From positions 87-64,086 of IMG/VR virus record IMGVR_UViG_3300034069_001154: 64,000 nt of DNA. The stretch is one strand, 5' to 3'. The notes beneath the pieces were generated by a model. That model was not told the origin of the DNA. It saw only the letters and a program-made list of their open reading frames with translations, and searched no databases. Below are positions 350-616 of the stretch, piece by piece; position 1 is the first letter of the stretch, and each line of letters starts with the position of its first letter. The position numbers and the translations under genes were made by a program. The stretch comes from a virus.

Positions 350-616
350 AAAAATTAAACGACAGGGAGTTAATCATTCAAAAATGATTTCCTATGCGAC
401 TCCCTATCTCTACCAGTACCGTGCCGCACATGTGCCCAAAAACCCAAGAATGCGGTGCCTGACGTACATAGCTTACCTGTTTCGCTACAAGGGTATCCTA
501 GTATTAGATAATTTGAACTATAAAACTAGGCAAAATTCATTCATCCGATTTACCTCTTTCCCCTATCGGCTGTTGATAGGACATCTACTCCAGGACTTAC
601 GGAATCCTTTCTATTC
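350..616 (-). ncRNA. multi-copy structured ncRNA, copy A
   Basis: Shares GAATTTTG-helix-TTTTATAG, ACCC-TGTAGCG, AAGCTATGTACG-CAGG, CGGTACTGGTAGAG and a terminal stem plus U-tract with 4 other loci; own promoter at about 616-635; ends approximate. Confidence 0.75.

Follow-up and report, generated by a model that had tools for sequence, protein, structure and literature searches.

A pseudoknotted multi-copy RNA family of jumbo phages and the Vsr-like nuclease genes that adjoin it

Which kind of element is the ~200-300-nucleotide (nt) sequence that recurs five times between the genes of IMG/VR virus record IMGVR_UViG_3300034069_001154, and what is its relation to the nuclease genes beside it? 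The window analyzed here is a stretch of 64,000 of the 64,686 bases of this record, for which CheckV gives a completeness of 19%, implying a genome of ~340 kb. An earlier note, made from the letters of the window, had proposed an undescribed class of structured, multi-copy phage RNA. The proposal is supported: no Rfam 15 model matches, and the covariation is stronger in 131 sequences and in a second clade. The RNA class appears to be new; the neighboring open reading frames (ORFs), which the note had overlooked, encode Vsr/DUF559-type nucleases, a kind already known.

Five copies in the window and their relatives

Alignment and a covariance-model search of the window both place the five copies, named A to E, at the positions and on the strands first read by eye:

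345-616, minus strand: RNA copy A, 131.8 bits with the covariance model; class-alpha structured leader, P0/P1 pseudoknot, P2, P4/P5, J UGGUAGAG, branched terminal stem, U tract
1518-1809, minus strand: RNA copy B, 109.9 bits with the covariance model
30679-30968, minus strand: RNA copy C, 105.3 bits; long insertions in the P1 loop and the terminal hairpin, no GNRA mini-hairpin
31006-31275, minus strand: RNA copy D, 121.7 bits; class-alpha leader, P2 variant GGC/GCC, in tandem with copy C
58083-58342, plus strand: RNA copy E, 112.3 bits with the covariance model
616-626, minus strand: promoter-like motif of copy A, CCTTATATGTG, of the kind that precedes every copy and many ORFs
679-733, minus strand: partial duplicate, in which a promoter-like motif and the initial ~50 nt of an A-type leader are present and the RNA body is missing (94% identity over 52 nt)

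The copies can be aligned along their full length. With filters off and every position on both strands of the window scored, the covariance model returned copies A-E only, at 105-132 bits (E 1e-25 to 1e-32); there is no sixth copy in the window, where the next-best score is 14 bits. The ordered blocks that had been read from the letters are real: UUUUG-helix-UUUUAU, ACCC, AGC-GNNANAGG-GCU, AUGUAC, a variable hairpin, GGUACUGGUAGAG and a terminal stem. The count of five is exact for the window, and the family is far larger, with 175 model matches and a diverged branch.

These 175 copies, in 64 loci of related metagenome contigs, were found with a shorter covariance model, R1, which has only 9 base pairs and so behaves mostly as a sequence profile; it misses the second clade described below, except for locus L314. 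Clustering at 90% identity sorts the 155 full-length copies into 31 groups. Two pattern scans of IMG/VR yielded more copies on three contigs, and one scan of metagenome contigs many more contigs. Five apparently complete contigs of 326-346 kb carry the RNA (ODJE01000001.1, OEED01000001.1, ODGJ01000001.1, ODKB01000002.1 and ODLJ01000002.1), each with at least 13-15 full copies as counted in 34-70 kb of it. Tandem copies are frequent, with up to seven inside 3.5 kb.

Fold and covariation

Pair statistics were computed on 131 distinct sequences, taken from the best 150 of the 175 model matches, with 500 column shuffles and slid helices as controls. In all-against-all pair counts, stacked covarying pairs stand out. 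Five helices, P0, P1, P2, P4 and P6, are paired at 86-99.8%, compared with 61-96% in the shuffles, none of which reaches as high, and 0-65% in the slid controls. Helix 1 and the terminal stem, both said in the earlier note to covary, do so in the larger set as well: P1 (helix 1) is 98.5% paired against 81% after shuffling, and P6 (the terminal stem) 96.8% against 85%, with slid controls at 25-65%. Helix P0, its pseudoknot with helix 1 and the pairing of P4 had been missed, and ATGTAC and GGTAC, listed as separate blocks, are in fact the two strands of P4.

The 5' part of the fold is an H-type pseudoknot, supported by covariation, in which P0 and P1 interlock. At least eight distinct complementary variants exist for each of the two helices (P0, e.g., GACUUA/UAAGUC, GGCUUUA/UAGAGCC and UAGAUC/GAUCUA; P1, CCUAG/CUAGG, CUCAG/CUGAG, CCCAA/UUGGG, GGUUGU/ACAAUC and others). 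P2 is UAGC/GCUA with two compensatory pairs, one of which is the change of AGC/GCU to GGC/GCC already picked out in copy D; it closes an 11-nt loop, G-NNANAGG-NN, with the conserved sequence GAUAUAGGU and the core form G-AUAUAGGU-A. P4 is a long-range helix with three covarying pairs (its variants include GUAC/GUAC, GUGC/GCAC, GUGU/ACAC and GUAU/AUAC) and encloses the variable hairpin P5. P6 is branched, and its interior in most copies includes a UC-GNRA-GG mini-hairpin (UC-GAAA-GG or UC-GCAA-GG) and a variable hairpin.

The conserved core runs from P0/P1 through the junction (A/C)UACCC, P2, P4 around P5 and the junction U-GGUAGAG to P6 and the U tract. Its unpaired invariant nucleotides are ACCC, the AGG of the P2 loop and GGUAGAG. 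A contact between loop and junction, ACC/GGU, is possible; both of its sides are invariant, so covariation gives no signal. Two alternative pairings from RNAalifold, UACC/GGUA and GCUA/UGGU, were no better than shuffles and were rejected.

The periphery (leader, P1-loop insert, P5 and P7/P8) is variable and is exchanged between copies. In orthologous copies of near-identical phages, P5 and the P7/P8 module are replaced wholesale and the remainder is ~99% identical; the copies are therefore mosaics.

A second clade of the family

On L142, a 113-kb contig, a distant relative of the neighboring nuclease ORFs has two diverged RNA copies upstream, with a promoter-like motif of the same type, TTCTTATATATG (at L142 3455-3480 and 3705-3730). 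A pattern derived from these two copies led to 51 true loci on ~45 IMG/VR contigs of 35-401 kb. The clade-2 RNAs are of three types, S1, S2 and S3, with further variants in L312 and L314. They keep the order of the elements with different helix sequences: P0 is UUAACUAU/AUAGUUAA, P1 is GCUUAU/AUAAGC, P2 is UGUU/AACA or CUGU/AUAG, and P4 is UGUAGGA/UCCUACA or AAUAAAAU/AUUUUAUU. Common to both clades are UACC, a P2 loop of the form G(N)AUAUAGGUU and the GUAGA junction. Locus L314 bridges the two, since it combines a clade-2 ORF with a core of clade-1 type (R1 E 4.7e-6).

An additional structured 5' domain is present in some copies, namely in the leaders of A (546-616) and D (31203-31275) and in S1 and S3 RNAs (e.g., L238 26-80). 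It has a covarying helix of its own (UCCG/CGGA, CACG/CGUG, GUAUG/CAUGC) and the conserved motifs AAGUCCUGGAGUAGA and GGAAAGAGGUAA; the second clade has a similar motif, AAGUCACGGGUAG. In L314 (2560-2790), the two P0 strands of S1 occur in reverse order and form a simple GAAA-capped hairpin nested in P1, so the pseudoknot topology is not universal in the family.

Outside this group of phages, the family was not found. It is absent from 185,579 prokaryote species, represented by one genome each, in which the pattern scan gave 73 single matches and nhmmer recognized none as a family member, and a BLAST search with copy A against 50,697 deposited phage genomes gave no match. Look-ups of two proteins of the phage, ClpB and the DNA polymerase, put it close to no annotated relative. 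The RNA family is confined to a lineage of phages of 0.2-0.4 Mb.

The repeats might matter as DNA only, as recognition or recombination sites of an endonuclease or as promoter-terminator cassettes, the RNA itself being functionless. The copies do lie at boundaries of ORF gain and loss, and contigs break at them. Against this, five helices stay paired through compensatory changes, including G-U pairs, which are strand-specific, and the architecture is kept in a clade with entirely different helix sequences. The RNA is under selection as RNA, and a role as DNA only is hence very unlikely.

Comparison with catalogued RNA families

Rfam 15 comprises 4227 models, among them those for tRNA, tmRNA, RNase P, SRP, 6S, group I and II introns, HEARO, ROOL, GOLLD, raiA, riboswitches and small ribozymes. 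At the gathering score, none of them matched a copy, and the window yields only tRNA-Leu and two group I introns, all elsewhere. At E<=10 with lax filters, nothing credible covered the copies in window 300-1900, in window 58040-58360, in L082/L083/L035 or in L238/L239/L259, so that both clades are included. ARAGORN likewise reports only the tRNA-Leu gene (6595-6681) in the window and nothing at the RNA copies in ~1 Mb of related loci, and no tRNA genes lie near the arrays. The group I intron model (RF00028) detects the two genuine introns of the DNA polymerase gene (54 and 50 bits) and none of the five copies even at E<=10; all five are intergenic, unlike group I introns, which lie within a host gene. 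By-eye likenesses to the tRNA D arm, RNase P CR-I, the TPP box, SRP domain IV and the hammerhead core were discarded, as they held for some copies only or found no Rfam support.

The two introns apparently split a family A DNA polymerase gene (49971-54109, plus strand), at 52464-52734 and 53407-53668, and the frame between them, 52835-53431, holds the middle of the DNA_pol_A domain. Just upstream, the ORF at 48852-49814 (plus strand) has MUG113/T5orf172 (GIY-YIG-related) matches and may be another homing-type nuclease.

No description of the RNA was found in the literature searched. The RNA might stand unnamed in a catalogue from 2023 that lists over 10,000 candidate viral RNA structures (PMC10690425) and whose text has nothing similar. 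In character, the RNA resembles ROOL, GOLLD, raiA and OLE, which also have complex, conserved, pseudoknotted folds with many invariant nucleotides, a phage or prophage habitat and a function that was obscure at their discovery. It differs from them in that neither sequence nor structure matches their Rfam models, in being smaller than ROOL or GOLLD, in occurring in several copies per genome with a swappable periphery, and in being tied to an endonuclease family instead of to tRNA genes.

Could the RNA be a trans-acting ribozyme or the catalytic core of a ribonucleoprotein (RNP)? The pseudoknot, the GNRA tetraloop, the three-way junction and ~25 invariant junction and loop nucleotides are typical of catalytic or ligand-binding folds. 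On the other side, no known ribozyme model of Rfam 15 matches, no candidate cleavage site or substrate is evident, and a catalyst needs no expansion to at least 13 diverged copies, so that this explanation appears improbable.

Promoter-like motif and 3' ends

Ahead of every copy stands CCTTA-n4-TG, inside a longer motif of the form CCCTAGAATCCTTAATAGTG. The motif is enriched in the window, with 31 sites against 14 expected (at most 3 mismatches). In the form (C)CCTAGAATCCTTAnnnnTG, it appears to be a phage-specific promoter-like element with ~30 sites in the window, e.g., at 321-334 (minus strand), 1809-1822 (minus strand) and 58070-58083 (plus strand). It also heads many ORFs, sometimes touching the ATG, as for ORF249 (below) and the gene starting at 320. 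This position next to the ATG points to mRNAs without leaders and to an RNA polymerase that the phage encodes or modifies. In a sigma-70 promoter scan of the window, the motifs of the copies were not called. At the 3' end, every copy has a long stem followed by 7-10 U.

The earlier note had each copy run from a phage promoter to a U tract. The motif and the U tract are present at each copy; that the motif is a promoter, and the stem with its U tract a terminator, we infer from the motifs only. The copies are not protein-coding: the longest ATG frames in 31 representatives have 10-59 amino acids (aa) and are not conserved, and reading frames are shifted between copies by indels in the variable modules.

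Neighboring Vsr-like nuclease genes

The RNAs of the window are accompanied by ORFs of one nuclease type:

743-1492, minus strand: ORF249, a 249-aa DUF559/Vsr-like endonuclease (putative free-standing homing endonuclease) between copies B and A
2099-3046, minus strand: distant paralogue of 315 aa, with only the nuclease core in common (E 6.6e-9), just upstream of copy B
57296-58069, plus strand: second DUF559/Vsr-like ORF (PF04480), 13 nt before copy E; the frame is open from 57233, and relatives start at Met 57296

Related loci show an alternation of RNAs and ~250-aa ORFs, all on one strand and ordered as RNA RNA ORF RNA RNA ORF. These ORFs belong to one diverged family, whose paralogues are 33-47% identical and share the core motif NYFLADYFFPxYNLxVEIDSxLHDxxYDxARDxY. 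PF04480 (DUF559) is matched by 11 of 14 members (best E 2e-6), and profile matches in the PDB are 3hrl (E 7.6e-5) and the nuclease domain of PvuRts1I. In the AlphaFold (AF2) model of the ORF, which has a confidence score (pLDDT) of 91, the core can be superposed with 3hrl (Z 9.9), the catalytic domain of I-Bth0305I (3r3p_B; Z 9.2, root-mean-square deviation 2.5 Å over 92 residues; no 3R3P profile match at E<=10), a RAP-like mitoribosomal protein (Z 8.4) and Vsr (Z 7.9). These fold matches came from a slower structural aligner; a Foldseek search of the model against the PDB gave no match at E<=0.001. D106, E117, D119 and H123 (D, E-x-D, H) are invariant in both clades, and the nuclease core, which is of DUF559/Vsr type, is predicted to be catalytically intact. 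In a collection of 5.8 billion proteins, relatives of the ORF occur on contigs of this phage lineage only, without names.

Vsr-like EDxHD homing endonucleases are an established phage family (PMC3239194). With its prototype, I-Bth0305I (PDB 3R3P), the ORFs share the fold of the nuclease core, the invariant acidic and His residues, a length of ~250 aa and presence/absence polymorphism in phages. They differ from it in being closest in sequence to DUF559, in being free-standing instead of intron-encoded, and in that their nuclease lies in the middle of the protein between unassigned N- and C-terminal domains, whereas that of I-Bth0305I is C-terminal, after NUMOD motifs.

The association with the RNA is tight in both clades. 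An RNA lies at most 400 nt from 46 of the 47 clade-1 ORFs, always on the same strand, a proportion that is biased since the loci were retrieved through the RNA; in this clade, RNAs number ~2-3 per ORF, and 13 of 91 have no ORF within 1 kb. In clade 2, a family ORF (E 1e-34 to 1e-49) directly adjoins the RNA on the same strand at 38 of 51 loci, and most of the other loci are cut off at one end. The ORF follows S2 RNAs and precedes those of types S1 and S3. One distant paralogue, catalytically degenerate, stands without an RNA beside it.

This arrangement bears on a role of the RNAs as cis-regulatory leaders, riboswitch-like or attenuator, that would govern read-through of the terminal stem into the downstream gene. 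A same-strand gene does follow most copies, S2 loci have no promoter-like motif between RNA and ORF, and the complex fold has aptamer-like invariant junction nucleotides. Such a role is nevertheless unlikely, and we give it little credence, because copy C faces a convergent gene, tandem copies occur and RNA and ORF have no fixed order, S1 and S3 RNAs being downstream of their ORF. Moreover, in clade 1 a fresh promoter-like motif, often abutting the ATG, separates each U tract from the next gene, the downstream genes are mutually unrelated, and two candidate switch pairings are no better than shuffles.

Gain, loss and decay of ORFs and RNA units

Close relatives of the window differ in ORFs and RNA units. 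Locus L092 (ODJE01000001.1) has flanks 97-99% identical to the window and two extra pieces, one of an ORF255 and an RNA at window 1825-1836 and one RNA unit at ~window 322-353; a contig from an independent sample also has an extra RNA unit, at ~window 320. In L031 (ERZ773061), otherwise collinear, 11 bases replace window 740-1517 and ORF249 is absent; the edges of this stretch are exactly the U tract of copy B and the next promoter-like motif. ORF249 is thus present in the window and L092 and absent in L031 with clean junctions, a presence/absence polymorphism of the kind known for homing endonucleases. When contigs of other samples are mapped to the window, assemblies are found to break at the repeats. 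Decay is visible too: in the clade-2 loci L237, L241, L245 and L252, the ORF is truncated and the RNA intact, and truncated 5' halves of RNA copies stand beside some ORFs. Near-identical genomes differ in whether an ORF or a single RNA unit is there, missing or decayed, with the RNA genes remaining intact.

Relation between the RNA and the nucleases

The reading that we favor, with moderate confidence, is that of a trans-acting phage RNA whose genes host a dedicated family of homing endonucleases. Each RNA would be a transcription unit of its own, running from a phage-specific promoter to a terminator and acting in trans. The ORFs would be free-standing homing endonucleases specialized on the RNA gene family as both habitat and target, as SegB is on tRNA genes, and the double-strand breaks, followed by recombinational repair, would give rise to tandem arrays, copy-number differences and mosaic copies. 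Selfish, free-standing homing endonucleases are suggested because the ORFs can be dispensed with, are polymorphic and decay next to RNAs that are intact, because RNAs exceed ORFs in clade 1, and because the junctions are clean and intergenic and the copies mosaic.

The closest precedent is SegB, a homing endonuclease in the tRNA cluster of phage T4 (PMC2330249), for which a statistical association with tRNA genes and the segmental amplification of tRNA and other anti-defense genes have been reported (PMC13096335). In the T4 and T6 clusters, arrays of structured-RNA genes are likewise interleaved with one homing-endonuclease family, and gain or loss of RNA gene segments is linked to the endonuclease, with copy-number differences between close relatives. 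The jumbo-phage RNA differs in that it is not a tRNA (by ARAGORN and Rfam), is 200-300 nt long and is pseudoknotted. SegB is a GIY-YIG enzyme, whereas the ORFs described here have the Vsr/DUF559 fold, and any homing, cleavage or anti-defense role is putative here.

The main rival reading is a partnership in which the RNA and the adjoining Vsr-like nuclease form one module, the RNA serving as cofactor, guide, activator, inhibitor (as in type III antitoxins) or dedicated substrate. Same-strand adjacency in both clades speaks for it, as does the S2 RNA, which stands directly upstream of its ORF with only the terminator between, an arrangement also found at IscB and ToxIN loci. RNA-binding RAP domains are among the fold matches of the nuclease, and there is a precedent in the HEARO RNA, the guide of IscB (PMC9755519). 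Yet clade 1 has ~2-3 RNAs per ORF and the 13 RNAs without one, ORFs are lost or truncated beside an intact RNA, and the order of the two is variable. Nor is there an unstructured, variable, guide-like segment: the variable parts are hairpin modules common to several copies, and the leaders, apart from themselves and paralogues, match the window no more often than chance allows. We consider this partnership unlikely. Less likely still is its more specific form, a jumbo-phage counterpart of HEARO/IscB whose nuclease would depend on the RNA and be targeted, activated or restrained by it, with the surplus RNAs as spare or alternative specificity modules.

With HEARO/IscB omega-RNA (RF02033), the family shares a large, pseudoknotted, multi-copy RNA recognized by comparative genomics beside a small endonuclease ORF. 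It differs in having no Rfam match, in a Vsr-like instead of an HNH/RuvC nuclease, in a 3' end formed by a stem and U tract with no variable single-stranded guide segment, and in RNAs that outnumber and outlive the ORFs in a varying order. The S2 arrangement recalls ToxI of type III toxin-antitoxin systems, where a nuclease gene is immediately preceded by a pseudoknotted RNA gene with a terminator; expansion of such RNAs by phages is known. ToxI, in contrast, consists of tandem ~36-nt units processed by the endoRNase toxin, whereas here each unit of 200-300 nt has a promoter-like motif to itself, the fold of the protein is that of a DNA nuclease, and a partner ORF is missing for many RNAs.

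Several points weigh against the homing-endonuclease reading. The identity of the ORFs as homing endonucleases is predicted, with I-Bth0305I matched by fold and not by sequence, and the same modeled fold matches RNA-binding RAP-domain proteins (Z 8.4), so that the substrate could be RNA. The adjacency of RNA and ORF is kept across two diverged clades; in clade 1, its frequency carries the retrieval bias, and in clade 2 the ratio of RNAs to ORFs is close to one, as expected of a functional RNA-protein pair as well. As for the transcription unit, a simple hairpin-terminator scan of the window calls none of the branched terminal stems of the copies, and the putative promoter is an enriched motif only. 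The sequence was looked for in sequencing runs, and no RNA run is listed as carrying it; the RNA ends given here are putative. The runs that contain it are DNA (plant metagenomes, air metagenomes and two coded samples).

How the RNA would act under the favored homing-endonuclease reading is a guess. The compact core, the swappable periphery and the expanded gene number suggest a stoichiometric role, exerted through the invariant core, in which extra gene copies would pay off: the RNA may be a decoy or sponge for a host factor that binds or cuts RNA, or it may be the core of an RNP. This proposal is tentative, and we would not be surprised to see it replaced.

Large RNAs of complex fold without an assigned function are rare, and earlier ones turned out to be important, such as HEARO, the guide RNA of IscB, and ROOL and GOLLD. 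The latter two form RNA cages. The RNA described here is abundant, with at least 13 genes per genome in one clade, is conserved over a wide lineage of 0.2-0.4 Mb phages and bears a clear mark of structural selection. If the homing reading is true, it is a second case, beyond tRNA and SegB, of homing endonucleases that shape and amplify a phage RNA gene family; if the rival is true, it is a new RNA-nuclease partnership. Either outcome bears on the use of RNA by jumbo phages during infection and on genome remodeling by selfish nucleases.

Other genes of the window

A complete RNA-repair enzyme in one chain, Pnkp plus ligase, is predicted from a single ORF of 721 aa (7293-9458, minus strand), which joins a P-loop kinase, a metallophosphatase and a T4 Rnl1-type RNA ligase; it lies ~700 nt from the tRNA-Leu(UAG) gene at 6595-6681. 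Proteostasis genes of the window encode an FtsH-like AAA protease (12623-14731), HSP20 (30109-30630), ClpP (39026-39760) and a ClpB/ClpC-like unfoldase (43369-46038). TelA (15541-16722), a DHH/DHHA1 phosphoesterase (18335-19276) and NAD synthase (27490-28410) are also present. Two IMPDH/GMP-reductase-like paralogues, at 32456-33550 (minus strand) and 58351-59496 (plus strand), are 31% identical, and each lies at most ~1.2 kb from RNA copies (D and C for the former, E for the latter). Two further pairs of related ORFs were noted: the ~675-aa ORFs at 3682-5715 and 46822-48846 (both on the plus strand) share 60% identity from end to end and lack a family assignment, and those at 9868-10350 and 10357-10827 are 61% identical.

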